Shown here in pieces: positions 1,101 to 55,133 of a stretch of DNA of 64,000 nucleotides. The notes under the pieces are model-generated. The model was not told where the DNA came from and ran no database searches. It worked only from the letters and a program-made list of their open reading frames with translations. Both the position numbers and the translations under genes were made by a program. Source of the DNA: Candidatus Fermentithermobacillaceae bacterium (GTDB lineage: Bacteria > Bacillota > Sulfobacillia > Fermentithermobacillales > Fermentithermobacillaceae). The DNA lies in the NCBI GenBank assembly GCA_012841375.1, contig DUUV01000002.1:17828-81827 (forward strand). The letters run 5' to 3'. Numbering within the stretch: the first letter of the stretch is position 1; every line of letters starts with the position of its first letter.

Positions 1101-1191
1101 GAACGTCTGCGGATACTCGGTTCTTGTCTTAGGTTAGGGCGAACCTCCTCTTGGAATACTCACCTGTAGGACCACTTGGGAGGACCAACAG

Positions 1192-27866: not shown

Positions 27867-27883
27867 AGTTCTCTTCCTCCTCC

Positions 27884-29862: not shown

Positions 29863-29874
29863 TTCCTTCTCCCT

Positions 29875-30948
29875 CTACGTCATGGTTGCTTTGAGTCTTA
29901 GTACTCCGGCGATCCGCTCTTCTACCATCCGGGTCGCCGCCAGTTCAGTGTTGATGCCTTCGCGCTTTGAAATAGTGAATATCGTCTTCAACAGTGAGGG
30001 AATCCGTTCCACCTTCAGCCTCGCCCGCTCTTTGTTGAACCCGAGAAGCTCATCGGCAACCTGAATGACCCCACCTGCGTTTACCACATAGTCAGGAGCG
30101 TACAGAATGCCCCGCCTGTAGAGCCTTTCGGCATCATCAGGCGTCGCCATCTGATTGTTCGCGCCGCCGCAGACGATCCCGCATTTGAGAAGCGGTATGG
30201 TCTTCTCGTTGAGGACTGCGCCCAGCGCGTTTGGGGAAAACACGTCGGCCTGGACCGACAGTATGTCTTCGGGATCTACGTAGGTGCCCCCGACCTCTTC
30301 GGCAACTCTGAGGGCTACATCTTTTCGCACGTCCGTCAGGACGACGGAAGCTCCCGCTTCACTCAGGTGACGGCAGACCTTTGAGCCAACCTTGCCGGTC
30401 CCCTGGACGGCCACCTTCACACCTTTGAGGTCGCTCTTACCGGTCGCTTCCAAGACACTGGCCCCTATCGCCAGGAAAACGCCGTATGCCGTGAGGACAG
30501 AGGTATCGCCGCTGCCGCCGTATTCGACAGGCAAGCCCACCACATACTTGGTCTCGGAACCGACATCAACGAAGTCCGCTGAGTATGTGCCCACATCGGT
30601 GCCGGTGATGAATCTTCCTTTCAGTCCCTCGATAAACCGACCGTACGCTCTGAGCAGGAGCTCGTCTTTGTCCTTCTCCGGATCTCCCCAGATAATCCCC
30701 TTCACTCCGCCGTGATGAAGGCCGCTGGCTCCTGATTTCAGCGTCATACCCTTAGAGAGCCTAAGGGCGTCAATCACGGCTTCCTCCTCTGACGCGTAAG
30801 GATACATTCGGGTACCGCCCAAAGGCGGTCCCAGCGTGGAATCATGGAACGCTACAATGGACTTGAGTTTTCCGCCTGCCTTGTCCCGGAAAAACATGAC
30901 CTGCTCGTGGCCTTCCGCGGCCATCTTCTTGAAGAGGTCCAAGCGCAT
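29875..30948 (-). CDS. ldh2: Leucine dehydrogenase, copy 2
   Basis: MRLDLFKKMAAEGHEQVMFFRDKAGGKLKSIVAFHDSTLGPPLGGTRMYPY... ATG at 30948. The longer ORF to 31113 has no support. Confidence 0.85.
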   Translation of the reverse strand: MRLDLFKKMAAEGHEQVMFFRDKAGGKLKSIVAFHDSTLGPPLGGTRMYPYASEEEAVIDALRLSKGMTLKSGASGLHHGGVKGIIWGDPEKDKDELLLRAYGRFIEGLKGRFITGTDVGTYSADFVDVGSETKYVVGLPVEYGGSGDTSVLTAYGVFLAIGASVLEATGKSDLKGVKVAVQGTGKVGSKVCRHLSEAGASVVLTDVRKDVALRVAEEVGGTYVDPEDILSVQADVFSPNALGAVLNEKTIPLLKCGIVCGGANNQMATPDDAERLYRRGILYAPDYVVNAGGVIQVADELLGFNKERARLKVERIPSLLKTIFTISKREGINTELAATRMVEERIAGVLRLKATMT

Positions 30949-31115
30949 CCCTCCACGAATTGTTCTCACCCGGATACAAGCAAGACTCATGCCGGATCTC
31001 CGGGGCGCGATGGTCGCGCTCCCGACACTCGTTGCCAGTCGCAAACATCCGCTCACCAGGGGAACGTCTCGGGTGCAAGCCTCCGGGAGAAGCGGCCTTC
31101 CCTCCGGGGTCATAT

Positions 31116-31195: not shown

Positions 31196-32965
31196 TCAAC
31201 ATCGGTCCTTTGCCTCGAGTTCCTTGATGCCGTACCGCTCAAGCTTGTTGTAGAGACTCCTTAGGCTGATGCCCAAGAGCCGCGCGGCCTTTGTCTTGTT
31301 GTTCCCGGTCTTCTGAAGTGCGCTCAGGATGGTCGCCCGCTCCGCGCTATCCACCGCCTCCCTGAGGCTTCCTGCGATCAGCGTAGGCGCCGGCCCAACC
31401 GGTCCCATATCTCCTTCGGCCGCTCTCCCCAGTCTCTCGCCTCCCATAGACATGGGCGGCAGGTGCTCCGGCAGGATGACCGTCTCCTGGAACTTCATGT
31501 TCATCATCGCCCTGCCGATGACGTTCTCCAGTTCCCTCACATTGCCCGGCCACCTGTAGGTCTTGAACACCTCCATCACCTGGGGGCTTACGCTTTCCAC
31601 GGAGCGCCCGTATTCCTGGTTGAGCTTCTTGAGAAGCCGTTCGCAGAGGAACGGGAGGTCGTCTGTACGCTGCCTGAGCGGCGGAATGAAGATGGGAATA
31701 ACGTTTAGACGATAGTATAGGTCCTCCCTGAACCGGCCCTCCGCCACCAACTGCTCCAACGAGACGTTGGTGGCGGCTATTACGCGAACGTTGACGGGGG
31801 TAGGCTTGGAGTCGCCCACTCTCATGATCTCCTTCTCCTGAAGGACTCTGAGGAGCTTTGCCTGCAGCGCAAGATTCGTGACCCCAACTTCATCCAAGAA
31901 CAGGGAGCCGCCTTCCGCTTCCTCGAACAAACCCTTCCTGCCGCCTCGCTTGGCGCCGGTAAAGGCGCCGTCGACGTATCCAAAGAGCTCGGACTCAAGC
32001 AGACTCTCGCTGAGCGCCGCGCAGTTCACCCTCACGAACGGCTTATTCCTCCTGGGCGAGGCGCTGTGGATGGCGTGAGCGAAGAGCTCTTTGCCTGTCC
32101 CGCTCTCTCCCCGTAGGAGGACCGTCGCCGTCGTGGACGCCACTCTCCTTGCCTGTTCCACCGCCTGTGAGACCAGAGGGTTGACCGACACCACTTCTTC
32201 AAACGTGTACTTGGCCTCAAGCTGTCTCACGATCTTCTTCATACGGTCGAGTTCCTCTGTGAGGCGTATGATCTCAGACACGTCACGGACAACTCCCACG
32301 CTGCCCTTAAGCTCGTCACCGACGAACACGGGGTCTACCGAGACCACGACCTGCCTGCGCATGGGTCCTACCCTCATGGGCACGTTCTTCACCGGCTGCC
32401 TGGTCCTCAAAACCTGCATATGCATGCTGGGGCCCTCGGCTATGTCGACCGTGGCCGGCTTCCCTATCACGTCCTTTTCGGTTAGCCCCGTGAGCCTGGT
32501 GTAGGCCTGGTTGATGAGGAGACCGTTTCCGTTTGCGTCGGCAACCGAGATCGCGTCTTGGGTGGCTCCAATGATGGCGGTCAGAAACGACTGGATCTCC
32601 CTTAGGTTCGTGATCTGTCCTGCCAAATTCTGGACCTCGGTTAGGTCCCGGAAGACGGCGACAGCCCCGACGACCTTTCCGCTCTCGTCTCGCACAGGCA
32701 CCCTGTTGGTGATGATCTCCGTCGTCCCTACCGACTGCCTTTGGTTCAGCTGGGCCTCGCCCGTATCCAAGACCTCATCGAGCTTCGTCGTGGCTATCAC
32801 GTCCCGGACGTGAGCGCCCATCACATCAGAGGCTTTCTTGCCGAGTATCTTCTCTGCCGAAGGGTTGAAGACAAAGACATGACCGGAGGCGTCAACCGCC
32901 ACTATTGCATCGTGAGTAGCGTTTAGGATGAGATCAAGCAGTCTGACTCGTGCAGAATCCTGCAC
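31196..32965 (-). CDS. bkdR: Sigma-54-dependent transcriptional activator with two PAS domains (BkdR/AcoR-like enhancer-binding protein)
   Basis: Central AAA+ sigma54-interaction domain (GESGTGKE...GAFTGA...). C-terminal Fis-type HTH ...KTKAARLLGISLRSLYNKL... Probable GTG start at 32965 (GGAGGTG RBS). The ORF drawn from 32995 uses TTG. Confidence 0.85.
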   Translation of the reverse strand: MQDSARVRLLDLILNATHDAIVAVDASGHVFVFNPSAEKILGKKASDVMGAHVRDVIATTKLDEVLDTGEAQLNQRQSVGTTEIITNRVPVRDESGKVVGAVAVFRDLTEVQNLAGQITNLREIQSFLTAIIGATQDAISVADANGNGLLINQAYTRLTGLTEKDVIGKPATVDIAEGPSMHMQVLRTRQPVKNVPMRVGPMRRQVVVSVDPVFVGDELKGSVGVVRDVSEIIRLTEELDRMKKIVRQLEAKYTFEEVVSVNPLVSQAVEQARRVASTTATVLLRGESGTGKELFAHAIHSASPRRNKPFVRVNCAALSESLLESELFGYVDGAFTGAKRGGRKGLFEEAEGGSLFLDEVGVTNLALQAKLLRVLQEKEIMRVGDSKPTPVNVRVIAATNVSLEQLVAEGRFREDLYYRLNVIPIFIPPLRQRTDDLPFLCERLLKKLNQEYGRSVESVSPQVMEVFKTYRWPGNVRELENVIGRAMMNMKFQETVILPEHLPPMSMGGERLGRAAEGDMGPVGPAPTLIAGSLREAVDSAERATILSALQKTGNNKTKAARLLGISLRSLYNKLERYGIKELEAKDRC

Positions 32966-33044
32966 AAAAAACACCTCCGCCTGTGAATTCAACAAGCGGA
33001 GGGTGTAGTCCTCTAACCTGCACTAACTTGCACAATTTACCGGA

Positions 33045-35708: not shown

Positions 35709-37475
35709 TCAGCCGCGCGGCTGTATAGCCCGACTTTTCAGTAGCTCTCTGGCGTGTTCCAGGGAGACCGGATCTTCGGTACCACTCAGCATCCGGGCGA
35801 CCTCGTGCACCCGCTCTTCTCCCGATAGAAGCCGGACGGTGGCGTGGGTCCGACCTCCTTCCTCGACTTTGGATACCAGGTAATGACTGTCAGCGGCGGC
35901 GGCGATGGAAGCCAGGTGAGTCACGCAAAGCACTTGGTGAGAGCGGCCCAGTTTCCAGAGGCTTTCGGCCACGGCTTGTCCGGCTTTGCCGCCAATACCT
36001 GCGTCGATTTCGTCGAAAATGAGGGTTGGAACCGGATCCGTGCTCTCCAGGAAAGACTTGATAGCCAGCATGAGCCTGGAAAGCTCCCCGCCTGAAGCCA
36101 CTTTGTGGACCGGCATGGGCGCCTCGCCCGTGTTGGCGGTGAATAGGAAACTGACCCGGTCGTAGCCCCACGGGAGAGGGTCGTCGCCCGATTCGACCAG
36201 GGCCGAGAAACATGCCCCCGGCATCCCCAACTCCCTGAGCGACGAAGTGACGCTCCCCGACATCCGTAGCGCCGTGTCCCGCCTGAGAGCCGACATCGAC
36301 TCGCCCACTTCCCGCATCCGTGACTCAAGAGCTGCCAGCTTGTCCTTCATCTTAGAAAGGGTTTCGTCCGCGCTGAGGAGCTCATTCAGACGGGCTTCCG
36401 CCTTCTTGGCGTAATCGAGCACCGATTCCACCGAATCACCGTACTTGGACTTGAGCCTCTGGATAAGGTCCAGCCGGTCCGAGACCAACTTGAGGCGGCC
36501 CGGGTCGAGAGACAAGCCTCTCCGGTACTGGCGGAGGGCGTCCAGCCCTGCCTCCAGAGCGAAGGCCGCTTGTTGGAGGGTATCCAAAGGTCCCGCCGCC
36601 CTTTCGTCTATTGAGGAGGCTCTTTTCAGGCACTCCACGGCCTCGTCGAGGAGCTCAAATGCCGCCCCCCGGGGACCCCGGCTGTCGTATAGGGCAGAAT
36701 AGCACCGCTCGGCCAGCTCCACGAGCCTTTCCTGGGAAGACAACACTGCGAACTCGCGGCGAAGTTCTTCTTCCTCGCCGGGGCGAATCTTGGCGTCGCC
36801 TATCTCCCGAACTTGATAGGACAAGAGGTCTATCTCCCTCTGTCTTTCCCTGTCGCCCCTTCCCAAGTCCGCCATCCTGGAGAGGACTTCTTGGCGCTCC
36901 CGGTACATGAGTTGAAAATCCCGCCTACAGGGCTCAATCGAGCTCCTGCTCAGACCGTCAAGTATCCCTAGATAGTTCTGTGGCCTGAGGAGCGAGTGGT
37001 GTTCTTGCTGCCCGTGGATGTCGACAAGGCGTCCGCCCAACTCCTGCGCCAACGAAGAAGTGGCCAGGCGGCCGTTCAGTCTGAGGTATGACCTGTCGGG
37101 TAGGATGTCTTTCTGGAGGATGATCTCCCGGGAGCCCTCAAGGAACGAAGCCAGCGGGTCTTCCCCTTCTCCGGGACTCTCAGATATCCGGGAGTCGTCA
37201 GGATTCTCAGAGCACCCGGGACCTCCCGAGTCTCCGGGACCATCCCGGTCTCCCTGCCGGTCGGGTATGGAAGCGACAAGCTCTATGACTGCCCGTTCCT
37301 CGCCGGCCCTCAATAGGTCCCTGGGAGTCCGCTGCCCGAGGCACGCCATTACCGCGTCGACAAGCATCGATTTTCCCGCTCCGGTCTCTCCCGTGAACAC
37401 AGTCAGTCCGGGGGCGAGCTCCAACTCCACGTCCTTGAATATTCCAAAGTTGCGGATCCTGAGATATGACAGCAT
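35709..37475 (-). CDS. recN: DNA repair protein RecN, with a low-complexity acidic/Gly-Pro insertion in the N-terminal region
   Basis: MLSYLRIRNFGIFKDVELELAPGLTVFTGETGAGKSML... (Walker A). C-terminal signature ...LSGGE.. / ...LIFDEIDAGIGG... Confidence 0.9.
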   Translation of the reverse strand: MLSYLRIRNFGIFKDVELELAPGLTVFTGETGAGKSMLVDAVMACLGQRTPRDLLRAGEERAVIELVASIPDRQGDRDGPGDSGGPGCSENPDDSRISESPGEGEDPLASFLEGSREIILQKDILPDRSYLRLNGRLATSSLAQELGGRLVDIHGQQEHHSLLRPQNYLGILDGLSRSSIEPCRRDFQLMYRERQEVLSRMADLGRGDRERQREIDLLSYQVREIGDAKIRPGEEEELRREFAVLSSQERLVELAERCYSALYDSRGPRGAAFELLDEAVECLKRASSIDERAAGPLDTLQQAAFALEAGLDALRQYRRGLSLDPGRLKLVSDRLDLIQRLKSKYGDSVESVLDYAKKAEARLNELLSADETLSKMKDKLAALESRMREVGESMSALRRDTALRMSGSVTSSLRELGMPGACFSALVESGDDPLPWGYDRVSFLFTANTGEAPMPVHKVASGGELSRLMLAIKSFLESTDPVPTLIFDEIDAGIGGKAGQAVAESLWKLGRSHQVLCVTHLASIAAAADSHYLVSKVEEGGRTHATVRLLSGEERVHEVARMLSGTEDPVSLEHARELLKSRAIQPRG

Positions 37476-37481
37476 GTCCCA

Positions 37482-37937
37482 TCACAGCCCGGCGATTTTT
37501 CTTAAGGAGTCAAGAACCTCCTGGGAAGAGGTCTCCTGACGTACGACCACCAAGACTGCGTCATCTCCCGCGACACATCCCAAGATGCCCGGGAGGTTTA
37601 GGGCATCAATGGCCTGTCCAACAGCGGCAGCCGTGGCTTCGATGGTCTTCACCAAAATGATGTTGCCCGACCGGTCCATATCAAGACAACAGTCCGAGAA
37701 CAACCGCCTGAACCTCTCCCGGTACACGGACGAAGGGTCTCCCGGCATAAGAGCATACTTGTACCGGCCGTCTCCCGATGGAACCCTCACAAGGTTGAGT
37801 TCTTTAATGTCCCGCGATATGGTTGCCTGGGTGACACGGATGCCTTCTCGGGCAAGCGCCTCGCACAGGACTTCCTGGCTTGTTATCACATTCTGTGACA
37901 CAAGTTCGATAATCCTCATCTGCCTCTTGGCCTTCAA
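37482..37937 (-). CDS. argR: Arginine repressor
   Basis: ...RQMRIIELVSQNVITSQEVLCEALAREGIRVTQATISRDIKELNLVRV... matches ArgR/AhrC. Confidence 0.85.
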   Translation of the reverse strand: MKAKRQMRIIELVSQNVITSQEVLCEALAREGIRVTQATISRDIKELNLVRVPSGDGRYKYALMPGDPSSVYRERFRRLFSDCCLDMDRSGNIILVKTIEATAAAVGQAIDALNLPGILGCVAGDDAVLVVVRQETSSQEVLDSLRKIAGL

Positions 37938-37959: not shown

Positions 37960-38844
37960 CTACCGTGGAAGCCTATCGGCGCCTTCTTTCATCTTCCGGC
38001 GCAGCACGTGGTAGAAGGACCAGTTCTCGCGTCTTAGGAGCGTCACTTTAGGGCCCGCTACCGCAACTCTGACTCTGTCGCCCCTCTTCAGAGCGAAAAA
38101 CTCCTGGCCGTCAACGCAAAGAGATGTCGAATGGCTCGGTTCTATGACCTCGATCTCGCATGGCTCTTGAGCCGGGAGCACGATCGATCGCGAATAGAGC
38201 GTGTGTGCGCAAACCGGAGTCACCAAGAGCGCTTCAATTGAGGGCTCCATAAGCGGTCCGCCCGCCGACAGTGAGTAGGCTGTGGACCCCGTAGGAGTGG
38301 CGATGATCACGCCGTCGGCCGAGTACGTATCAACGATGTTTCCGCCTACCCTTAAGGTCGTGACTATCATCCGTCCGTAGGGCCCCTTGACCACGCACGC
38401 CTCGTTCATGGCGAGCCCCGTCCGGATCACCTGATCGCCCCTTATCACCGAGGCCCGGAGGAAAATCCTCCTATCCTCTATAAACCGTCCCGACAAAAAC
38501 GAAGGGAGCGTAGAGAACAGCTCTTCGGACTCAAGTTCGGTGAGAAAGCCGAAATGGCCCAGGTTGACTCCCAGGAGGGGGACTCCCTTAGACCCCAGTC
38601 CCCGGGCGGCAGCGAGTAACGTACCGTCCCCTCCGAGCACTACAGCGAATCTGACCCGTTCGGGCCAAAGACGCATGGGTAAACCGTGTCCAGGTCGTCC
38701 GACAACCTGAGTGAGACACGACGGTACGCGCCCGGCGTAGCCCTCAGAGTCAAGCCAATCGAGAAGCCGTCCGGAGAGCTCCAGACTATCTTCCTTCAAG
38801 AGGTTTGGAAGCACACCTATTATGAGGTCTTTGTTACCGGTCAT
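37960..38844 (-). CDS. nadK: NAD(+) kinase
   Basis: GGDGT motif (VVLGGDGTLL), then ...NEACVV...DGVIIATPTGSTAYSLSAGGP... Confidence 0.85.
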   Translation of the reverse strand: MTGNKDLIIGVLPNLLKEDSLELSGRLLDWLDSEGYAGRVPSCLTQVVGRPGHGLPMRLWPERVRFAVVLGGDGTLLAAARGLGSKGVPLLGVNLGHFGFLTELESEELFSTLPSFLSGRFIEDRRIFLRASVIRGDQVIRTGLAMNEACVVKGPYGRMIVTTLRVGGNIVDTYSADGVIIATPTGSTAYSLSAGGPLMEPSIEALLVTPVCAHTLYSRSIVLPAQEPCEIEVIEPSHSTSLCVDGQEFFALKRGDRVRVAVAGPKVTLLRRENWSFYHVLRRKMKEGADRLPR

Positions 38845-40720
38845 AGGCCTCCTTCACCAGGCGCCGGACGCGCTCGGCAATAGACTCTGCGTCCAGCCCC
38901 GACAGCTTTCTAAGCTCGGATTGCGGGCCGTGCTGAACAAAAGCGTCCGGCAGAGAGAGCGTCGCCACCTCCCGGTGTTCGCCGGTACCGGCCGCGAAGC
39001 TCAGGACGGCTTCGCCTAACCCACCTGCCGGCACATTCTCTTCCACCACAAGCAGCGGCCCGGTCTTCACCAATCGCGCCACGAGTTCGCGGTCAAAGGG
39101 CTTTACGAACCGCGCGTTGACTACAGCGCACGAGACTCCTTCCCCCGATAGGATCTCAGCCGCTTGAAGGGCAGGGTAGACCGCGCTTCCTACTGCCATG
39201 ACTGTGACATCGCTGCCCGATTGCAGGACTTCGGCTTTGCCCGTTTCCAACAGCTCGGGTTTCTCCAGCGCCTCACGGTAGTCCGCTCCAATGGCCGCCC
39301 CTCTCGGGTACCTGACTGCGCACGATTCGGGGATTTGAAAAGCCGTGTGCAGCATGTTGACCAGTTCGATCTCGTCTTTGGGAGCCATCACGACCATACC
39401 GGGAACTGTCCGGAGATAGCTCAGGTCAAACTCACCGTGATGGGTTTCTCCGTCGTCTCCGACAAGTCCTGCTCTGTCAATGGCGAACACCACCTTGAGC
39501 CGCTGCTGGGAGACATCCTGAACTATCTGGTCATAGGACCTCTGAAGGAAAGTAGAGTATATGGCGACCACCGGAAGCATCCCGCCTTGGGCCAGTCCCG
39601 CCGCATACGTAACGGCGTGACTCTCGGCGATCCCGACATCGAAGAACCGGTCGGGGAATAGCTCCTTGAACTCGCCCAGTCCGGTGCCATCCGACATGGC
39701 CGCCGTAATGGCGACCAATCTGGGATTGGTCTTGGCGAAAGCGCACATGGCCTCTCCGAACACCTTGTTCCAGGCAGGAGGGCCGTCCTTCCGGTATATT
39801 TCTCCGGTGGCCGGGTCAAAGGGACCGGGACCGTGGTACCTTTCAGGGTCCTTCTCCGCAGGCTCGTATCCCTTGCCCTTCTTGGTGACAACATGCACTA
39901 TGACGGGCTCCTTGAGAGCTTTGGCATCCCGCAACACACGCTGCATGCCCTCTATGTCATGTCCGTCTATGGGTCCGTAGTAGCTGAATCCCAGAGACTC
40001 AAACCAGGCTTCCGGGAACAAGAGGTGCTTCAGGCCCCCTTTCAGTCTCCGGAGCATCTCTACGGCCTGAGGGCCAAGGCTTGGCATCCTATCCAGCACC
40101 TTCTCAAGCCTTTCCTTAGCGGACCTATATATCGGCGCCATCCGGATAGCCGTGAGGTGGAATGAGAGCCCCCCGACATTTTCCGAAATGGACATGGAGT
40201 TGTCGTTGACCACGACGATAAGCCTGCTGCCCAGCCCGCCTGCATTGTTCAGCCCTTCGAAGGCCAATCCGGACGTGAGGGACCCATCTCCTATCACCGC
40301 CACAACGTGGTAGTCTTCCCCCCTCAGGTCTCGCGCCTTGGCGAGCCCCAAGGCATAGGAGATAGAGCCTGAGGCGTGACCTGTGTCGTATACGTCATAC
40401 GGGCTCTCCGCCCGCTTGGGAAATCCCGAAAGCCCCCCAAGCCGTCGCAACGTGTGAAAGCGGTGAGACCGGCCGGTGACAAGCTTGTGGGCGTATGATT
40501 GGTGACCCACGTCCCAGACTATCTTGTCTTTGGGAGTATCAAACACGGTGTGCAGAACCAGTGTCAGCTCGACGACACCTAGGGACGACGCCAAGTGGCC
40601 TCCGTTCTTCGACACGGTGTCGATGATGCGGGCGCGAAGATCCGCCGCGAGCGCGCGCAGCTCTTTGGGTGACAAGCGCTTAAGGTCCTCGGGTGACTTG
40701 ATATCGAAGGATTCTGACAT
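38834..40720 (-). CDS. dxs: 1-deoxy-D-xylulose-5-phosphate synthase
   Basis: ...DVGHQSYAHKLVTGR...GHASGSISYALGLAKA...GDGSLTSGLAFEGLNNAG... TPP / transketolase-like. 628 aa. Confidence 0.9.
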   Translation of the reverse strand: MSESFDIKSPEDLKRLSPKELRALAADLRARIIDTVSKNGGHLASSLGVVELTLVLHTVFDTPKDKIVWDVGHQSYAHKLVTGRSHRFHTLRRLGGLSGFPKRAESPYDVYDTGHASGSISYALGLAKARDLRGEDYHVVAVIGDGSLTSGLAFEGLNNAGGLGSRLIVVVNDNSMSISENVGGLSFHLTAIRMAPIYRSAKERLEKVLDRMPSLGPQAVEMLRRLKGGLKHLLFPEAWFESLGFSYYGPIDGHDIEGMQRVLRDAKALKEPVIVHVVTKKGKGYEPAEKDPERYHGPGPFDPATGEIYRKDGPPAWNKVFGEAMCAFAKTNPRLVAITAAMSDGTGLGEFKELFPDRFFDVGIAESHAVTYAAGLAQGGMLPVVAIYSTFLQRSYDQIVQDVSQQRLKVVFAIDRAGLVGDDGETHHGEFDLSYLRTVPGMVVMAPKDEIELVNMLHTAFQIPESCAVRYPRGAAIGADYREALEKPELLETGKAEVLQSGSDVTVMAVGSAVYPALQAAEILSGEGVSCAVVNARFVKPFDRELVARLVKTGPLLVVEENVPAGGLGEAVLSFAAGTGEHREVATLSLPDAFVQHGPQSELRKLSGLDAESIAERVRRLVKEAYDR

Positions 40721-41272
40721 TTACCCTTTCCTCTCCCGAATGATTCTCTGCCGAATTCTGCCGAGGATTAGGATTATGCTTTCAGCGTACTTCAAAGTCA
40801 CAGGCTTGAAAAGTGCCTTCCCCCCAACACTGAGCATGGATGCTATCCCCACGGCGACGCTGGTTGCCACCGCCCAGTCTATATACGGTATGTACTGCCC
40901 CACCCTGTACACAAGCGCCACCGCCAGAGCCCCGGCCATGGTGGCCGCGACGTCGCCTGCCAGATCACTAAAGACGGATGACACCCTGGGAGCGTTCCTC
41001 ACAAACCATACCGCCTCGCGGGCTCCCGGCACCCTCCTTGAGGCCATGGAGAGAAGAGACTCTTCTCTTGCCCTGGTCGCCGCCAACCCCACCGCGTCGC
41101 TCGCGATGCCCAAGGCTATCACCAAAAGAAAAAGAGGCACCCCGAAGTATGGCGGGATGGCCTCATACAATCGCTCAAACGCCAGGTTCATTAAAAGGCT
41201 CAGGACAAAGGCGCTGAGCGCGAAAGCAAAGATGCCGGCATATAAACCTCGCTCTCTTTTCTTCCTGCTCAT
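40721..41272 (-). CDS. oapA: OLE-associated protein A-like small 4-TM membrane protein (inferred from genomic context)
   Basis: 183-aa, four-helix membrane protein encoded immediately downstream of the large structured RNA and abutting dxs. This is the position OapA occupies in ispA-OLE-oapA-dxs loci. Confidence 0.5.
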   Translation of the reverse strand: MSRKKRERGLYAGIFAFALSAFVLSLLMNLAFERLYEAIPPYFGVPLFLLVIALGIASDAVGLAATRAREESLLSMASRRVPGAREAVWFVRNAPRVSSVFSDLAGDVAATMAGALAVALVYRVGQYIPYIDWAVATSVAVGIASMLSVGGKALFKPVTLKYAESIILILGRIRQRIIRERKG

Positions 41273-41275
41273 GCC

Positions 41276-41790
41276 GTCGTCATCTCGCCTCCGAGGGGCA
41301 GCGCTCGCAGTAAATCTTGTGACTTAAGGTCCAGCAGGCTTTCCCGCCGGCCGACCGGGGCTTGCGCCCCTGGCGGTTCCCCTTTAGGGCCGGCCTGCCG
41401 CGTCGCCGCAAGCAGAGCTGGATCACCACTTAGTTCACACCGTAACCCCACAAGCGCCCAAGTGAGACGGTCTAGGAGTTTTCCTCAAGGGCCCCCATCC
41501 CTAGCCTTTATTGCAGCAAACGGGTTTTCAGGAGGAACCTTCCTACCCGGCCACTCAAGACAGGTCATTTCCCTAGACCGGGATGCAACCGTAGGGACAG
41601 GTGTCCCCGCGAAACCAGGGAGGACACCTACATGCCGTTGTAGGTTTCCCTGATTTCCTTCTCCCTAAAGGGACCGGAAGCTGGGCGCAACCGGCCCTCT
41701 CCAGGGCGAACCGGTATGACCGGTGACGGATTTTTAGCCCCGCCTTTGAGATGGGTCAGCCCACTAGAATACCGCGCCCACTCGGAGTGC
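41276..41790 (-). ncRNA. ole: Candidate OLE (ornate large extremophilic) RNA
   Basis: ~515-nt non-coding, highly structured region with many GC hairpins (e.g. GGUGUCCuccc..GGACACC; CCUACAacggcaUGUAGG). It is preceded by a strong sigmaA promoter and lies between ispA and the oapA-like gene upstream of dxs. No RNase P, tmRNA or SRP hallmarks were seen. Confidence 0.55.
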
Positions 41791-41797
41791 ACATTAA

Positions 41798-41826
41798 ATT
41801 ATACTCTAACTGGGGTTTTGCCTCAA
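41798..41826 (-). promoter_or_regulatory. SigmaA-type promoter (TTGAGG-17 nt-TATAAT) for the OLE-like RNA
   Basis: Perfect -10 TATAAT (complement of 41798-41803). The -35 TTGAGG (complement of 41821-41826) overlaps the ispA stop codon. Confidence 0.45.
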
Positions 41827-42731
41827 GAAGGAGAGGCAGAGGGAGAGTCAGCGGCCAGCTTGGTTGCAAGGTAGTGCTTGGACAGACGGGCAAGAAACCA
41901 ATCCGGTCCGGCCAAACGTATGCTTCTCTCTAGGGCCGAAGCAGCCTCTCTGCGTGCCGCGTCCAAAGACACCCGCTTGACCAAAGTATCTTTTTGGTCT
42001 TCGGAGCCGCCCTGGACTGAATCGTCAATATCATCCATAATCTGGAACGCAAATCCGAAACACATGCCTGCCTCCCCTGCGCGGGCCACGGTCGTCGCAG
42101 GCGCTCCGGCGAGGATGGCTCCGAGTTTGGCGGCAGTCTCAAAAAGCCTACCGGTCTTCAGCCGGTATGTGAGACGGACACGGTCGGCGGGGTCGTCGCC
42201 GTTGGAGCCCCGGTGAACGGACGGGCCGCCACCGGTCGAGATACCGGGCTGCAGGTCAAGGACTTGCCCTCCGACCATCCCTGCGGCCCCTGCCCCGTAG
42301 GCCAGGGCTCTTATGCCCTCGACGACCCGGTAAGGCGGAAGGTCGGAAGAGGCCGCCGTCTCAAACGCCAGAGTCAAGAGGGCATCGCCTGCCAGGACCC
42401 CTATGGCTTCGCCGTATTTCCTGTGGCAGGTAGGCCGCCCCCGGCGCATATCGTCATCATCCATGCAGGGCAAGTCGTCGTGAACAAGGGAGTATGCGTG
42501 GACCATCTCCATGGCAAGGGCAAAGGGCATGGCATCGCCGTCCCCACCCAGGCTCGCGTAGGTTGAGAGGACGATGGCGCCGCGAAGGCGCTTTCCGCCC
42601 CCCGCAGAGTAGGCCATGGCTTCGCGGATCAATGGGACGTCGCAACGGTATCCGCTTACCGCCGCTCCCATGGCTTTGTCAATTGATTCCTTCAAGAGGC
42701 CTAGCTCTCTCGTGAGGTCCTCTGAGGACAT
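41823..42731 (-). CDS. ispA: Farnesyl-diphosphate (polyprenyl) synthase
   Basis: Two Asp-rich motifs (VHDDLPCMDDDDMRRGRP and FQIMDDIDD). Probable start at MSSEDL (ATG 42731). The ORF drawn from 42911 overlaps xseB. Confidence 0.85.
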   Translation of the reverse strand: MSSEDLTRELGLLKESIDKAMGAAVSGYRCDVPLIREAMAYSAGGGKRLRGAIVLSTYASLGGDGDAMPFALAMEMVHAYSLVHDDLPCMDDDDMRRGRPTCHRKYGEAIGVLAGDALLTLAFETAASSDLPPYRVVEGIRALAYGAGAAGMVGGQVLDLQPGISTGGGPSVHRGSNGDDPADRVRLTYRLKTGRLFETAAKLGAILAGAPATTVARAGEAGMCFGFAFQIMDDIDDSVQGGSEDQKDTLVKRVSLDAARREAASALERSIRLAGPDWFLARLSKHYLATKLAADSPSASPS

Positions 42732-42822: not shown

Positions 42823-43068
42823 TTACTCCGGCTCGCCTTCTTGCTTCGCCACACCTGATGCTCCGGGTTCCTTGGAGCCCGAGAGGATCTCCTCCACCTT
42901 GCGTTCGGCACTATCCAGGATACCCTCTAAGCGGCGGGCCAACTTGATGCCCTCCTCAAACTTGGCGAGTGAATCCTCCAGTGAAAGCTCACCGCTCTCC
43001 AATTGCTTCACGGTTTCTTCCAGTTGTCTTAGAGCTTTGGCGAAATCCATGTCCTCAGGCACGCTCAT
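42823..43068 (-). CDS. xseB: Exodeoxyribonuclease VII small subunit
   Basis: 81 aa (…DFAKALRQLEETVKQLESGELSLEDSLAKFEEGIKLARRL…) matches XseB. Confidence 0.85.
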   Translation of the reverse strand: MSVPEDMDFAKALRQLEETVKQLESGELSLEDSLAKFEEGIKLARRLEGILDSAERKVEEILSGSKEPGASGVAKQEGEPE

Positions 43069-44309
43069 TTGCCATCCTCCTCACCTTCACCGATCAAGTC
43101 GCTCTCTGTTAACGATTCCTCAACCCGGCAGACCAGTGATCCCCGCATCAACGAGACTTCCACCTCTGTACCTTTAGGCGCGAGCCTTGCGTCCCGTACA
43201 ATCACCCCGTCGGGCATCCTGCGCACCAGACTGAACCCCCGGGAAAGCACCCTGAGCGGGCTCAAAGCATCGAGCTTGGCGGTAGTCTTCATAAAGGCGT
43301 TTGACTTCTTCTCCATGACGGCGGCCATGCCGGCCTCCAGCTGGCGGGCCAGCCTTATGAGAGTCTCTCTCGATGAGACCAGGAACCAGTCGGGCCTCTC
43401 GAGGGCAGGCCGCGACCGAAGAAGGCTCAGTGTCTGGCGATACCCGCCGATCATTTTGTAGATTTCGTTCCTTAGGTCTTCCCTGCGCGAGCTGACGGTT
43501 GTGAGGAGGTCCGCGGCTGCCGGTACAACCAGTTCGGCTGCTTGAGAGGGAGTCGCGGCTCTGGCGTCGGCCACCAGGTCGGCCACGGTCACGTCTCTCT
43601 CATGGCCTACGGCTGAGACCACAGGTACCCTGGAAGCGTAGATGGCCCGGGCCAGAGTCTCATCGTTGAAGACAAAGAGGTCCTCCTGGGAGCCGCCGCC
43701 CCGGCCAATTATGATGACGTCCACTCCCGGCACCTCGTTGAGAGCTTGAATCCCCCGCACCATGGTACCGGCGGCGCCTTCTCCCTGGACCTTGGAATCA
43801 GCTACCACAAATGACACACCCCTGAAGCGGCGCCTACCGACGCTTATGATGTCCTTGATGGCCGCTCCACGGATGGACGTGACAAGTCCGATTTTCCGCG
43901 GGAAAAAGGGCAAAGGCCGCTTTCTCTCCTGCCGGAACAACCCTTCCTTCTCCAACTTCTCTTTCAGCTTTTCAAGGGCCGCGTAAAGGGCTCCGAGCCC
44001 GGAGGGCTCCATAAAGCTGACGTAAAGCTGGTAGACTCCGTCACGCTCAAACACCGATACACTGCCGGCCGCGATCACCTGGGCGCCTTCTGACGGGACG
44101 AACGAGAGCCTCGACGCGTCACTCCGCCACATCACGGCCTTGATGCTGGCCTTCTCATCCTTCAGGGTGAAGTAAAGGTGGCCCTGGTAGTTGCGGAGGT
44201 TCCCGATCTCGCCTCGCACCATGACCTCGCGAAGGAAATCGTCCGAACGGAAAAGGTCTCGCACATAAGCGTTCAGCCTGGATACGGTTATCGCCTTGTT
44301 TGGGTCCAT
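43065..44309 (-). CDS. xseA: Exodeoxyribonuclease VII large subunit
   Basis: N-terminal OB fold (...VRGEIGNLRNYQGHLYFTLKDEKASIKAVMWRS...). 414 aa. Confidence 0.9.
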   Translation of the reverse strand: MDPNKAITVSRLNAYVRDLFRSDDFLREVMVRGEIGNLRNYQGHLYFTLKDEKASIKAVMWRSDASRLSFVPSEGAQVIAAGSVSVFERDGVYQLYVSFMEPSGLGALYAALEKLKEKLEKEGLFRQERKRPLPFFPRKIGLVTSIRGAAIKDIISVGRRRFRGVSFVVADSKVQGEGAAGTMVRGIQALNEVPGVDVIIIGRGGGSQEDLFVFNDETLARAIYASRVPVVSAVGHERDVTVADLVADARAATPSQAAELVVPAAADLLTTVSSRREDLRNEIYKMIGGYRQTLSLLRSRPALERPDWFLVSSRETLIRLARQLEAGMAAVMEKKSNAFMKTTAKLDALSPLRVLSRGFSLVRRMPDGVIVRDARLAPKGTEVEVSLMRGSLVCRVEESLTESDLIGEGEEDGK

Positions 44310-44451: not shown

Positions 44452-45849
44452 TTACCACTTATCCTGCGGCCCCGATAGATACTCGTGAATGTCCTTGGCT
44501 GCCGCTTTACCGGCTCCCATGGCCAGAATGACTGTGGCCGACCCGGTCACGGCGTCTCCACCTGCCCAGATCCTCTGCCTGGTCGTCCTGCCGGTCTTCT
44601 CATCGGCGATGAGCCCGCCCCAGGATTGGGCGTCCAGGCCGGACGTGGTCTGAGAAAGGATCGGGTTGGGCGAGGTGCCCAGCGACATGATCACGGTATC
44701 GCAGTCCATGACGAACTCGGAACCCTCTATGGGCACCGGACGTCGCCTTCCTGACTTATCGGGTTCGCCCAGCTCCATCTTCACGCACTTTAGACCTTTG
44801 ACCCAACCCTTTTCGTCTCCAAGGACCTCTACGGGGTTGGTGAGGAAGTGGAACTTGACGCCCTCTTCTTCCGCGTTCTCAACTTCTTCGGCTCTGGCAG
44901 GCATTTCAGCGCGGCTACGCCTGTAGATGATGGAGGCTTCCTCGGCGCCGAGCCTGAGAGCGCACCGGACGGCGTCCATGGCAACGTTGCCCGCTCCCAC
45001 TACCGCCACCTTCTTGCCCTTCTTGACGGGGGTATCCCATTCGGGGAACAGGTAAGCCTTCATGAGGTTTATCCTGGTGAGCCACTCGTTGGCCGAGTAC
45101 ACGCCGTTCAGGTTTTCACCGGGGATACGCATGAACATGGGGAGTCCGGCACCGGTTCCCACGTACACAGCCTCAAAACCCTCGTCAAACAGGTCATCTA
45201 TGGTGAAGGTGCGTCCTACGACAACGTCGGTCACGATCTTCACGCCCAAAGCCTTGACGTAATCAACTTCCCGCCTGACTACGTCCTTCGGGAGCCTGAA
45301 CTCAGGGATCCCGTAGATGAGAACACCGCCGGGAGCGTGGAGCGACTCGTATATGGTCACGTCATAGCCCAATTTGGCCAGATCGCCTGCGGCGGTAAGT
45401 CCTGACGGGCCCGCTCCTACCACGGCGACCTTCTTGCCGTTGGGGGCAGGCTTCTCGGGGACAAGGGCTCCGCCCTTAGCCTCCCAGTCTGCGGCGAACC
45501 GCTCCAGTCGACCGATGGCTATAGGGTGTCCGGTCCGGAGAAGCACGCACTTGGACTCGCACTGAGACTCTTGCGGACAGACCCGCCCGCAGACGGCCGG
45601 GAGGTTGTTTGTTTGTTTGATCGTTTCAATGGCCTCGCGATACTTTCTCTCTTTGATGAGTCCGATGAACGTAGGTATCTGAACCGATACGGGACAGCCC
45701 TCTACGCACCGGGGATTCTTGCACTGGAGGCAGCGTGAGGCTTCAGCCAGCGCCATTTCCTCAGTATATCCAGTCGCCACCTGGGAGAAGTTGCGTGCCC
45801 GCTCGGCGGGGTCCTGCATTGGCATAGGCGTTCTCTCTTTGACGGCCAT
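44452..45849 (-). CDS. nfnB: NADPH-dependent glutamate-synthase small-subunit homolog (NfnB / SudA / GltD-like: 2x[4Fe-4S] + FAD + NAD(P) binding)
   Basis: ...CLQCKNPRCVEGCPV...CGRVCPQESQCESKC..., then two Rossmann motifs (VAVVGAGPSGL..., VAVVGAGNVAMD). Confidence 0.8.
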   Translation of the reverse strand: MAVKERTPMPMQDPAERARNFSQVATGYTEEMALAEASRCLQCKNPRCVEGCPVSVQIPTFIGLIKERKYREAIETIKQTNNLPAVCGRVCPQESQCESKCVLLRTGHPIAIGRLERFAADWEAKGGALVPEKPAPNGKKVAVVGAGPSGLTAAGDLAKLGYDVTIYESLHAPGGVLIYGIPEFRLPKDVVRREVDYVKALGVKIVTDVVVGRTFTIDDLFDEGFEAVYVGTGAGLPMFMRIPGENLNGVYSANEWLTRINLMKAYLFPEWDTPVKKGKKVAVVGAGNVAMDAVRCALRLGAEEASIIYRRSRAEMPARAEEVENAEEEGVKFHFLTNPVEVLGDEKGWVKGLKCVKMELGEPDKSGRRRPVPIEGSEFVMDCDTVIMSLGTSPNPILSQTTSGLDAQSWGGLIADEKTGRTTRQRIWAGGDAVTGSATVILAMGAGKAAAKDIHEYLSGPQDKW

Positions 45850-46682
45850 TACTTACCACCTCCGCACTGGCAGCTCTCTACGGCTACCTTCTCTTCATCC
45901 CTGTACATCCCAGCCCTTCGCCAAGCTTCGGCCCAGTCAACCTCGTGACCGTCAAACATCGGGCCGTCGACACACACAAACTTGGTCTGGCCGCCGACAG
46001 TGATGCGGCAGGCACCGCACATACCGGTGCCGTCCACCATTATGGGGTTCATGGACACCCAGGTCTTGAGTCCGTAAGGCCTTGTGGTCTCACAGGTGGC
46101 GCGCATCATGGGGATGGGACCGACGGCGACTACCTCATCGCACTTGAGTCCTCCGTCTATGAGTTCCTTAAGCTTGTCCGAAACAAAGCCCTTGAACCCG
46201 CGGCTTCCGTCGTCGGTGCAGATGTGGACTTCGCTCGAGCACGCCCTCATCTCGTCCTCCAGGATGATGAGGTCTTCTGAACGGGCTCCGATGATGCTCA
46301 CGACATTGACTCCGCGTTTGTGGAGTTCCTTGCACTTGGGCAGAATGGGAGCCACACCAACTCCGCCTCCGACGGCAACGACGGTTCCGCTTGTGGGAAG
46401 CTCGGCAGGGATTCCCAGGGGCCCCACCAGGTTCAGTATTGAGTCACCGACCTCGAGCTTGCCCAGGAGCTTAGTGCTGAACCCGACTTCCTGGAAGACC
46501 AGCGTAATGGTGTCTTCTTCCCGGTCGAAGTCGGCAATGGTAAGGGGGATTCTCTCGCCGTTCTCCCTTACGCGCAGGATGATGAATTGGCCCGGCTGGG
46601 CCTTTGCCGCAACATAGGGGTTCCTGACAACAATGAGCTTCGTTACAGGGGTGAGATCCTTCTTCACCAGTATCTCGTTCAT
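45849..46682 (-). CDS. nfnA: Ferredoxin-NADP reductase-like / PyrK-like subunit (NfnA / SudB-type: FAD + [2Fe-2S])
   Basis: C-terminal Cys cluster (...CGACRITVGGQTKFVCVDGPMFDGHEVDW...). ATG at 46682 with GGGAGGAAG RBS. Adjoins the nfnB stop. Confidence 0.8.
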   Translation of the reverse strand: MNEILVKKDLTPVTKLIVVRNPYVAAKAQPGQFIILRVRENGERIPLTIADFDREEDTITLVFQEVGFSTKLLGKLEVGDSILNLVGPLGIPAELPTSGTVVAVGGGVGVAPILPKCKELHKRGVNVVSIIGARSEDLIILEDEMRACSSEVHICTDDGSRGFKGFVSDKLKELIDGGLKCDEVVAVGPIPMMRATCETTRPYGLKTWVSMNPIMVDGTGMCGACRITVGGQTKFVCVDGPMFDGHEVDWAEAWRRAGMYRDEEKVAVESCQCGGGK

Positions 46683-46735
46683 CCGGCTTCCTCCCACTTT
46701 TCACTTTGCGCCCTAAAGCACCACCTCACATTGTA

Positions 46736-49103: not shown

Positions 49104-49652
49104 CTAGTCTCCTCCTTTCATGGGAGCGACCTCTATCCTGTAGAGAGGAATACCCAAGAGGGCCTGGGCTGCCCGGTAGATATCTTCCTTTACGCCTGAC
49201 GCGGACGCGCCCTGGGCGACTATGAGGCAACCTGCCACTTGGCCGGGGATTATCCTCTCGAGAAGCGGCGTCTCGGATGAGCCGAAACGGCCGCTGACCG
49301 GCTGAGAAGACTCGTTCTCCGAGAGATTCTGCCTCATCTGGCCGCCTTCCAAGGTCTCTGTCTGAGATGTGCTGGACCTCGTCACGTTCTCGGCGTACAC
49401 ATTTTCAGGACCTGATGATAGCGTGACTCTTGCGCGGACCTTGCCCACGCCGCGGATGGAGCCAATGGCCTCCTCAAGGGCGGCCTCGATCAGCCTGGCC
49501 TGCTCCACTAGATCGGCTATCGGCGTGCCTTCGGCGCCCTGGCTCTTGGGGCGAGCGCTCACGAACGTCCCAACAAGAATCAAAGCCACTCCTATGAGAG
49601 CCAGCACTAAAAGTCGCAGGTTTTGCGGCTTGAGAACAGCTTTCAAATCCAT
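49104..49652 (-). CDS. spoIIIAG: Stage III sporulation protein AG
   Basis: Signal/TM anchor plus the C-terminal ...GQVAGCLIVAQGAS...LGIPLYRIEV... conserved SpoIIIAG region. Confidence 0.75.
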   Translation of the reverse strand: MDLKAVLKPQNLRLLVLALIGVALILVGTFVSARPKSQGAEGTPIADLVEQARLIEAALEEAIGSIRGVGKVRARVTLSSGPENVYAENVTRSSTSQTETLEGGQMRQNLSENESSQPVSGRFGSSETPLLERIIPGQVAGCLIVAQGASASGVKEDIYRAAQALLGIPLYRIEVAPMKGGD

Positions 49653-49770: not shown

Positions 49771-50250
49771 TCAGGGACCGGACACCAGGATCTCGACCTT
49801 GTCTTCCGGGATTCCCGTGTAGACCCCGATAGCCTCGCGGAACGTTTCCAGCCGGTCCTCCGGAGAACCCGGCATTACCGCGACCAGAACCCTATCCAGG
49901 GAAAATCCTCCGTCTTTGGTGGTTACCGAGACCTCCTGGGTCTCGACCCCGCACTTGCCGGCCAACTCGGCTATGCGCTGGGCCGTCTCCATAGAGTAGA
50001 ACTGGCCCAGCGAAAAATCGGTAAAGGCAGTGGGTAGTGAGGTCGGCTGAGGGCCGGCAGTTCCCGATCTCAAGAGCCCTGCGAGCGGCACTATGACGCA
50101 CAGCAAGAGAAGCATTTCCGAAACGAACTTGGCCTGCTTGATGAAGGACTTGGGCACGAGAAGCATCACGGTCGACGAAAACACCGCAAGCAGAAACACG
50201 CCTCGCGCCCACACTTTGACCGACTCCATAGGCCTAACCCTCCTTACCAA
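49771..50250 (-). CDS. spoIIIAF: Stage III sporulation protein AF
   Basis: Two N-terminal TM helices plus a small C-terminal domain. Position between AE and AG. Confidence 0.7.
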   Translation of the reverse strand: MVRRVRPMESVKVWARGVFLLAVFSSTVMLLVPKSFIKQAKFVSEMLLLLCVIVPLAGLLRSGTAGPQPTSLPTAFTDFSLGQFYSMETAQRIAELAGKCGVETQEVSVTTKDGGFSLDRVLVAVMPGSPEDRLETFREAIGVYTGIPEDKVEILVSGP

Positions 50251-54465: not shown

Positions 54466-54563
54466 CTGAACCCCTCCTTCTGTTGTCGTCTCCCGGAACG
54501 GTCTTGCTCACAGAGATGCCTGCCGCCTGCGGTCGCCACGGCACGTTATTACCCGTGCAGGCG

Positions 54564-55121: not shown

Positions 55122-55133
55122 GCGGACACCTCG

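Follow-up and report, generated by a model that had tools for sequence, protein, structure and literature searches.

A compact OLE RNA and its OapA partner gene in a Candidatus Fermentithermobacillaceae genome

Results

The ole-oapA locus

Analyzed here is a 64-kb stretch of DNA (the window) from a metagenome-assembled genome (MAG) of Ca. Fermentithermobacillaceae, and in particular its interval 41826..40721 on the minus strand, which we read as an ole-oapA locus, i.e. a true OLE RNA of the known bacterial type together with the gene for its protein partner OapA. The probability that we attach to this reading, about 0.96, concerns the identity of the locus; the mechanism of transporter regulation considered below is rated separately, at roughly even odds. 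The host lineage is the candidate class DTU015, renamed Fermentithermobacillia, with members that are uncultured, thermophilic, anaerobic, fermentative and spore-forming, and neither the RNA nor OapA is annotated as such in the source MAG, the protein being entered there as a “hypothetical protein”. An earlier sequence-only reading of this DNA had proposed an OLE-RNA-like structured RNA followed by an OapA-like membrane protein; its elements are all present where it placed them, and it was accurate in each checkable detail. The strand, which it did not name, is minus for the OLE RNA, the promoter, oapA and the neighboring genes alike. The locus comprises:

41826..41798, minus strand: sigmaA-type OLE promoter TTGAGG-17-TATAAT (-35 at 41826..41821, -10 at 41803..41798)
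41796..41279, minus strand: match to the Rfam OLE model, RF01071
41272..40721, minus strand: oapA, 183 aa, assigned from hydropathy, motif, fold and homology

The gap between the ispA stop and the oapA start (41822..41273, 550 nt) contains just short overlapping open reading frames (ORFs) of 41-63 aa, and had rightly been described as a region with no credible ORF. From the end of the Rfam match to the oapA ATG there are just 6 nt.

Identity of the RNA and covariation

The whole window was scanned against Rfam 15 at gathering thresholds and gave two matches, OLE and a cobalamin riboswitch (RF00174). The OLE match is 518 nt long, scores 281.8 bits against a gathering threshold of 50 (E 6e-79) and covers model positions 1-616 untruncated. 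A covariance-model search of this kind had been proposed as the check on the OLE-RNA-like identification, and its outcome makes the RNA OLE itself, with the refinement that it is a compact variant rather than full-length. That RNase P, tmRNA and signal recognition particle RNA had not been recognized in the sequence agrees with the scan, in which the sole non-OLE match was the riboswitch.

Related loci were collected with an OapA alignment, used to scan a single genome for each GTDB species. A first scan with a 36-sequence alignment failed (no conserved stretch) while 23 closer sequences worked, yielding 25 loci, all from Ca. Fermentithermobacillaceae or unnamed Bacillota MAGs and including the closed genome of Ca. 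Fermentithermobacillus carboniphilus Bu02. OLE lies directly upstream of oapA in every one of the 25 (Rfam matches of 250-310 bits). The 25 OLE copies were aligned with MAFFT, and a structure was predicted with RNAalifold independently of Rfam. The resulting consensus has 148 pairs, 66 of them with both sides changed in at least one sequence (compensatory), and standard pairs occupy 97.4% of cells, with none of 500 column shuffles reaching the observed values on any measure. When the 3′ partners were slid by 1-3 columns as a control, compensatory pairs fell to 13-24. The window copy forms 145 of the 148 consensus pairs, and more than 200 columns of the alignment are invariant. The minimum free energy (MFE) fold of the single sequence recovers the same helices (z = -4.03, with 0 of 100 dinucleotide shuffles folding equally well). 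The functional OLE RNA probably begins at ~41791 and extends at least as far as the terminal helix reaches on the 3′ side, to 41288, or ~505 nt.

Helix-by-helix architecture

The helix order matches the published architecture, with a terminal helix, a P2-type pair, P3, P4, P5, P6, a P7-P9 region, and a 3′ domain with a P12-P15 four-way junction. The P-labels were inferred from published text descriptions of OLE architecture.

41776..41787, minus: terminal helix (P1-like), 5′ strand CUCCGAG-U-GGGC; pairs with 41299..41288; 5 of 9 pairs doubly changed; in the MFE fold
41288..41299, minus: terminal helix, 3′ strand GCCC-CUCGGAG-G; includes the Shine-Dalgarno (SD)-like GGAGG of oapA at 41292..41288
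41764..41775, minus: P2-like helices, 5′ strand (GCGG..UCUAG); pairs with 41475..41467 (CUAGACCGU); helices 2 and 3, almost invariant
41748..41762, minus: P3-like long-range stem, 5′ strand; pairs with 41501..41489; compensatory changes in 10 of 12 pairs
41725..41744, minus: P4/P4a hairpin GGCGGGG-CUAAAAAU-CCGUC with A-rich L4 loop; invariant in 25 of 25
41707..41724, minus: J4a/5, with ACCGGUUCG in place of the consensus kink-turn (k-turn) strand AUCGAUGAAG
41663..41706, minus: P5 hairpin with invariant loop GCGCCCAGC (L5); helices 6 and 7; Rfam alignment and covariation
41611..41657, minus: P6 with inner hairpin and invariant loop CAAYGGCAUG (L6); helices 8 and 9
41608..41593, minus: reduced P7, a 5-6 bp mini-hairpin; Rfam alignment, helices 10-11, MFE fold
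41590-41588/41565-41563, minus: reduced P8, GGU/ACC closure (3 bp), with a 4-bp UCCC/GGGA mini-hairpin at 41583-41580/41573-41570; Rfam alignment, MFE fold (P7 and P8 region overall, 41563..41608)
41504..41561, minus: shortened P9, basal stems kept, distal extension lost; Rfam alignment
41300..41486, minus: 3′ domain (“domain 2”), helices 16-26, many compensatory; includes P13, P14 and P14.1
41486..41476, minus: GAGGAAAACUC hairpin, in the 3′ domain
41458-41448/41310-41300 and 41439-41435/41322-41318, minus: P12-type stems, in the 3′ domain
41422-41417/41335-41330, minus: P12.2, in the 3′ domain
41415..41395, minus: P13 hairpin CUGCU-U-GCG[GCGA]CGCGGCAG, GNRA tetraloop and single bulged U; predicted OapB-type site

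Several of these elements have counterparts with assigned roles. The CUAG palindrome of the P2-like strand is one OapA-binding site by literature assignment (PMC12265935), the P3-like stem has been proposed to span the membrane, the A-A pairs of L4 act in the OLE dimer (bridge B1), and P4/P4a lies in the region of the second OapA site. Both GGCGGGGCUAAAAAUCCGUC and UCUAG/CUAGA, i.e. the L4 loop and the OapA-site sequences of P2 and P4a, are invariant in 25 of 25 copies. Binding of OapB requires the P13 GNRA tetraloop, a single-nucleotide bulge and P12.2 (PMC7936274), and all are kept in the window copy as the GCGA tetraloop, the bulged U and P12.2. Across the clade the G-GYGA-C loop of P13 occurs in all 25 copies, 6 of the 8 pairs of helix 21 are compensatory, and one extra 5′ column forms the bulge. 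The P6 region binds bS21 in H. halodurans (PMC12054373). A CCUCC in the window P6 was considered as an anti-SD mimic for bS21 and rejected, as it is not conserved even in the closest relatives and is probably there by chance.

A compact variant

The window OLE is a compact variant and otherwise an ordinary member of the known family. At 518 nt it is 98 nt shorter than the 616-position model, and in the Rfam alignment segments of 44, 36 and 48 model positions, corresponding to P7, P8 and distal P9, are matched by 16, 18 and 5 nt. Full-length P7 and P8 are thus lacking, as is the long P9 with its palindromic kissing loop (L9.3, bridge B3), and the terminal loop that remains is variable in the clade; it is distal P9, with the GGCC kissing loop L9.3, that forms bridge B3 in the cryo-electron microscopy (cryo-EM) OLE dimer. 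Also missing is the OapC k-turn at the base of P5 (J4a/5 ...UC-GAU-GA-AG), where inspection of the window sequence gives ACC-GGU-UC-G; because of the replacement in J4a/5 listed above, the tandem G-A pairs of the k-turn cannot form on the window strand, and no conserved G-A pair or substitute for the k-turn was found in the 25-copy alignment. A perfect hairpin, ACCGGU-CAU-ACCGGU, is predicted in J4a/5 of the window copy at the place of the k-turn strand of full-length OLE, and is partial in the closest relatives. It was rejected as a clade-wide replacement of the k-turn, being convincing only in the window copy and shifting in register among relatives. The L4 loop of bridge B1 is retained and invariant, as are L5, L6 and the OapB site.

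Compact size is common to 21 of the 25 related copies (504-547 nt), the other four ranging from 571 up to 635 nt. Three of these four carry a 60-100-nt insertion at P7 (L009:2357-2983, L012:2350-2984 and L020:164-753; alignment columns 217-309) made of direct repeats resembling CCCGGAUGAA/ACGGU, which looks like a lineage-specific re-expansion of a stem that is minimal in relatives. For comparison, a full-length OLE locus (L026) was fetched via a distant OapA relative. Its OLE is 671 nt long and scores 419.5 bits; P7 and P8 are long, P9 is complete and capped by a UGGCC loop, and J4a/5 reads GUGAAA.

Two shortened forms of OLE have already been published, variant 1 with shortened P7, P8 and P9 and variant 2 with P7/P8 absent (PMC11332333). 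Because its P7 and P8 are reduced, the window copy is grouped with these shortened variants, but not placed in either bin, as the published bit-score cut-offs belong to a different covariance model.

The OapA protein

The protein encoded next to the RNA had been described as a 183-aa, four-transmembrane protein abutting dxs, and this stands: hydrophobic segments lie at residues 10-32, 41-63, 103-122 and 131-151, and the oapA TAA immediately precedes the dxs ATG at 40720. In an AlphaFold2 model (mean predicted local distance difference test score 78.5) the long helices coincide with the hydropathy segments. Residues 64-102 form a basic loop, and the C-terminal tail is basic as well. A DxxxD motif, D103-L-A-G-D107, has D103, G106 and D107 invariant in 36 sequences, and aligns in register with DVIGD of Clostridium acetobutylicum OapA. 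Against the latter, BLASTP gave 30% identity over 132 aa (E 2e-15) and hhalign a probability of 99.4% (E 1.8e-21), with the caveat that this reference sequence, from the cryo-EM study, was taken from machine-read supplementary text and may contain small errors. A tblastn search of the window and the four nearest relatives with the reference OapA gave no match; this is attributed to the sensitivity of seeding rather than to missing homology, given the BLASTP and hhalign matches.

The profile search that had been proposed for this protein was uninformative in one respect, as curated Pfam and NCBIfam hold no OapA model, but the identity itself is borne out by pairwise homology, motif and fold. 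The sole match in Pfam and NCBIfam scans was a sub-threshold Cation_efflux (19.4 vs 26.6 bits), and the Pfam scan found no PF01595, CBS or CorC_HlyC match at E <= 0.01. In a search of a 5.8-billion-protein collection, identical proteins from Ca. Fermentithermobacillaceae MAGs (HHX27452.1/MGI6665845.1) are labeled “hypothetical protein”, and more distant relatives form a graded series in which those ~35% identical carry PF01595, the CNNM domain. In Foldseek searches of the PDB, the top six matches to the model were CNNM/CorB/CorC transmembrane domains (7M1T, 7CFF, 7CFG, 7M1U) with probability 0.97-1.0 and TM-score 0.50-0.61, the next matches having probability <=0.35. Searching PDB sequences with a profile made from the OapA alignment returned nothing meaningful, and only fold comparison recovers CorB/CorC.

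OapA is defined by four transmembrane helices, a DxxxD that is absent from CNNM domains, a basic cytoplasmic cluster and a gene immediately 3′ of ole, and it has a published CNNM-like fold resembling CorB 7M1U (PMC11332333). The 183-aa protein has all of these features and is OapA.

Promoter and transcript signals

TTGAGG-17-TATAAT is the best sigma-70-like site in the 4.7 kb from 38.5 to 43.2 kb, with 10 of 12 matches. As had been read from the sequence, it is near consensus and its -35 hexamer overlaps the ispA stop (TGA 41825..41823). Transcription of OLE is predicted to start at ~41792-41789. At the equivalent place 23 of the 25 related sequences have a promoter scoring 9-11 of 12 and the other two a TGnTATACT extended -10, and in most of the 25 the -10 ends 1-7 nt before the Rfam match. 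In B. halodurans a proximal promoter directly 5′ of P1 has been shown by experiment to be active, with its start site at the foot of P1 (PMC3413148). By consensus and by conserved position, OLE here has its own predicted promoter immediately 5′ of P1.

A terminator scan found no terminator-like site between ispA and OLE, OLE and oapA, or oapA and dxs. In the full-length comparator, unlike the window, ispA is followed by a clear terminator. One terminator-like hairpin lies within oapA (41159..41138) and was set aside as no more than chance would give, 5 such sites being found where 3.2 are expected.

A Shine-Dalgarno sequence inside the terminal helix

The outer 7 bp of the terminal helix join 5′ CUCCGAG (41787..41781) with 3′ CUCGGAG (41295..41289), and the only SD-like run upstream of oapA is the GGAGG at 41292..41288, 4 of its 5 bases being paired in this helix. 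With 15 nt between SD and ATG, the spacer of the window copy is a long one. Overlap of SD and terminal helix occurs in all 25 related loci, while the helix itself exists in at least four compensatory versions (CUCUUUGAG:CUCAAAGAG, CCUGCGAGG:CCUCGCAGG, CUCUCC:GGAGAG and the window’s own CUCCGAG:CUCGGAG). In the full-length comparator the SD, GAGTGAGGAA, falls ~20 nt beyond the terminal helix, and the 3′ tail of the Rfam consensus is U-rich with no such overlap. The arrangement may be a new detail of this lineage. It suggests that OLE folding or 3′ processing could limit OapA translation in this clade. A 4-codon mini-ORF, AUG ACG ACG GCA UGA (41283..41269, minus strand), begins 4 nt after GGAGG, and its stop overlaps the oapA AUG (AUGA); it is absent in relatives and probably due to chance.

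Gene neighborhood and other features of the window

Pfam and NCBIfam confirm every protein-coding neighbor named in the sequence-only reading, so that its gene order, xseA-xseB-ispA-OLE-oapA-dxs-nadK-argR-recN, and the argument from synteny are correct:

44309..43065, minus: xseA (ORF map, Pfam and NCBIfam)
43068..42823, minus: xseB (ORF map, Pfam and NCBIfam)
42911 (ORF start; probable true start near 42728) to 41823, minus: ispA (ORF map, Pfam and NCBIfam)
40720..38834, minus: dxs, directly after the oapA stop (Pfam and NCBIfam)
38844..37960, minus: nadK, with an 11-nt overlap with dxs (Pfam and NCBIfam)
37937..37482, minus: argR (Pfam and NCBIfam)
37475..35709, minus: recN (Pfam and NCBIfam)

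A position between ispA and oapA/dxs in the xseA...recN cluster is as expected for the OLE family and is seen likewise in the full-length comparator. dxs and nadK are probably co-transcribed with OLE-oapA. The overlap of nadK with dxs leaves no room for tlyA, which is indeed absent as had been noticed; in the comparators L026 and L027 the S4 and FtsJ gene tlyA is retained after dxs, before nadK or recN (L026:3556-6217; L027:805-3706).

More widely, the window has the classic synteny of the sporulation region, with the spoIIIA operon, asp23, nusB, xseAB, recN, spoIVB, spo0A, spoIIM and spoVA. In Bacillus folD is usual between nusB and xseA, and that position is held here by a gltD-like and ferredoxin-reductase-like gene pair (44452..46697). 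The cobalamin riboswitch RF00174 lies at 1117..924 on the minus strand (111 bits vs a threshold of 31.5, E 5.8e-27). On the minus strand at 25771..31113 there is a tandem duplication-like block, in which a Glu/Leu/Phe/Val dehydrogenase and an acetate/butyrate-kinase-like gene are followed by a phosphotransacylase and then by another dehydrogenase and another kinase-like gene. The block is probably an operon for amino-acid fermentation, and upstream of it is a sigma-54 activator with PAS domains (31196..32995). Three ORFs, 54483..55628 on the plus strand and 49104..49652 and 49771..50250 on the minus strand, had no Pfam match at E <= 0.001; the latter two, small and within the spoIIIA operon, are probably divergent spoIIIAF and spoIIIAG positions.

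Discussion

The analysis establishes the identity of the RNA and of the protein, conservation at the level of structure, linkage of the two genes and the promoter consensus. The OLE family, its protein partner, the synteny and the shortened variants are all already known, and the GTDB-wide Infernal search of 2024 would have covered DTU015; the lineage is not named in the accessible portions of its text and supplement. The known distribution of OLE (PMC11332333) matches an anaerobic, thermophilic, spore-forming Bacillota host. The window copy is no new kind of element, and its residual value lies in annotation of an unannotated locus, in a natural minimal thermophilic OLE and in the arrangement of an SD within P1. 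OLE is among the largest conserved bacterial RNAs of unsettled biochemical function, which makes each correctly annotated copy useful. The OLE added here is compact, GC-rich and from a thermophile. Keeping the unresolved 3′ domain and the OapB site without P9.3, most of P7/P8 or the k-turn, it amounts to a natural deletion experiment on dispensable parts and may serve as a better-behaved construct in structural studies of domain 2, while the SD in P1 suggests a simple link between folding of the RNA and synthesis of OapA.

A possible mechanism may be outlined at least preliminarily. The dedicated sigmaA-type promoter would fire 3-5 nt upstream of the first helix and produce an OLE RNA of ~505 nt, closed by the terminal helix between its 5′ and 3′ ends and predicted to hold the P2/P3/P4 core, P5, P6, the reduced P7-P9 and a complete 3′ domain with the OapB-type GNRA hairpin. 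The next gene encodes OapA, with its four helices, CNNM-like fold and DxxxD. By homology with Halalkalibacterium halodurans, OapA dimers may keep the RNA at the membrane by binding near P2 and P4a, OLE may dimerize through the A-rich L4 loop, and the ribonucleoprotein may help the cell tolerate stresses, among them cold, short-chain alcohols, excess Mg2+ and poor carbon sources. In the mechanism that we favor, the RNA would supply the sensing and regulatory module of a CNNM-type divalent-cation transporter, a part that in MpfA/CorC is played by CBS and CorC domains. OLE-OapA would on this reading be a CNNM-type cation transporter and regulator built of RNA and protein, a proposal that could, in our judgment, equally well prove right or wrong. 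In model species OapA binds OLE cooperatively and localizes it to the membrane, OLE dimerizes, and OapB, OapC and bS21 bind defined sites, while loss of the OLE complex sensitizes cells to cold, ethanol, Mg2+ and poor carbon sources (PMC3413148, PMC7936274, PMC9723947, PMC12054373, PMC12286853, PMC12265935); and MpfA, a CNNM Mg2+ transporter that does have CBS and CorC domains, is anticorrelated with OLE (PMC11332333).

Several observations weigh against carrying this picture over in full. Binding, localization, dimerization and physiology are drawn from other species, the present organism being uncultured, and the step of transporter regulation is a hypothesis, the biochemical function of OLE being unsettled even in model species. 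The OapC k-turn strand is replaced, the P9.3 kissing loop of bridge B3 is deleted and P7/P8 are minimal, and the P6 anti-SD mimic CCUCCU for bS21 is not conserved in the clade. Because several features of the model species are missing, the set of partners and the geometry of the dimer may differ here. The Foldseek E-values for the OapA model are weak (0.03-0.5), though no other fold competes. Since no terminator divides OLE from oapA, a discrete stable RNA would require 3′ processing, or else the RNA remains attached to the mRNA. Genes for OapC and bS21 normally lie in ribosomal operons, and for this reason their absence near the locus is expected: tblastn and Pfam scans found no OapB (YbzG) or OapC (YbxF) gene in the 64-kb window or the fetched loci, and OapC and bS21 homologues were likewise not found there.

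An alternative explanation could be that the RNA is a decaying remnant of OLE, its P7-P9 deletions and loss of the k-turn marking a non-functional molecule; it falls 98 nt short of the model, and its score is 282 bits where the full-length comparator has 419.5. This would not account for the occurrence of the compact form in 21 of 25 species-level loci (504-547 nt), for extensive compensatory changes and more than 200 invariant columns, or for the conserved promoter and intact oapA. Published variants with short or absent P7/P8 are moreover considered functional (PMC11332333), and P7/P8 do not contribute contacts to the OLE dimer (PMC12265935), and decay appears highly improbable. Just as improbable is that the 183-aa protein is nothing but a small Mg2+ transporter of CNNM/CorC type with an RNA nearby by coincidence of synteny. 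Its fold does match CorB/CorC transmembrane domains and its distant relatives do carry PF01595, but it lacks CBS and CorC_HlyC domains and reaches no Pfam threshold, it has the OapA-specific DxxxD and is homologous to OapA, OLE is adjacent in 25 of 25 loci, and the oapA SD is inside the RNA.

That last arrangement raises the further possibility that the structured region is mainly a long cis-acting 5′ leader for translational control of oapA (and of dxs-nadK), in which the terminal helix hides the oapA SD and OapA is made only from transcripts with incompletely folded OLE. Such a role would be consistent with the pairing of 4 of 5 bases of GGAGG, with the overlap in all related loci and at least four independent compensatory versions of the helix, and with the absence of a terminator between OLE and oapA and the 6 nt from Rfam match to ATG. 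In B. halodurans, ethanol raises OLE ~7-fold and oapA mRNA just modestly, and the authors suggested translational control (PMC3413148); limitation of OapA translation by OLE folding would fit an oapA mRNA that does not follow the induction of OLE. However, OLE is stable, abundant and discrete in B. halodurans (PMC3413148), it folds and dimerizes alone (PMC12286853), and ~500 nt of conserved structure is far beyond what occlusion of an SD would need. Because the SD of the full-length comparator falls outside the helix, occlusion cannot be a general function of the OLE family. We consider it unlikely that the region is chiefly a leader, and this reading is best taken as an added, lineage-specific layer upon a genuine ole-oapA locus rather than as an alternative to it. 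A broader proposal, that DTU015/Fermentithermobacillia have a natural minimal GC-rich OLE of ~505 nt, without the OapC k-turn and P9.3 bridge and with the ribosome-binding site of oapA fused into the closing helix, is offered tentatively and with limited expectation. If it is true, OLE folding or processing would gate OapA translation, a built-in control of RNA:protein stoichiometry undescribed for the family.

Comparison with known systems

Compared with full-length OLE (Halalkalibacterium halodurans, C. acetobutylicum, C. botulinum), the window copy shares a covariance match over the whole model and a series of conserved blocks, namely the L4 loop CUAAAAAU, GCGCCCAG, CAAYGGCAUG, GAGGAAAACUCCUAGAC, ACUAAGUGGUGAUCC, UAAAGGGGAACCGCC, GGACCUNAAG and CACAAGAUU. 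Also in common are the long-range P1/P2/P3 closure, the 3′ domain with its GNRA P13 hairpin, the site between ispA and oapA-dxs, and the proximal promoter. It differs in length (518 nt vs ~577-671 nt), in having 60% G+C, in having mini-hairpins for P7 and P8, no distal P9 kissing loop and a replaced UGAA/GAUGA k-turn strand, in an outer P1 whose 5′ strand is rich in pyrimidines and whose purine-rich 3′ strand serves also as the SD of oapA, and in the lack of a terminator after ispA. Variants 1 and 2 of Fernando & Breaker 2024 also have shortened P7-P9 or have lost P7/P8 while keeping the conserved core, and are scattered across many clades (PMC11332333). Their typical carriers are gut symbionts of reduced genome (TANB77, RF39), and they are often without an OapB site (PMC11332333), unlike the window copy, which comes from a free-living thermophilic spore-former with a genome of the 2.3-Mb class and has the OapB site intact.

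The protein likewise has the size of known OapA (~180-190 aa), four transmembrane helices, DxxxD in the third of them, a basic loop and a CNNM-like fold, and its gene directly follows ole on the 3′ side, whereas it is only 30% identical to C. acetobutylicum OapA and matches no Pfam or NCBIfam model. With the CNNM-family Mg2+ transporters MpfA, CorB and CorC it shares the transmembrane fold, and is set apart from them by four helices rather than three, by DxxxD, by the absence of the CBS pair and of CorC_HlyC, and by its link to an RNA instead of protein regulatory domains.

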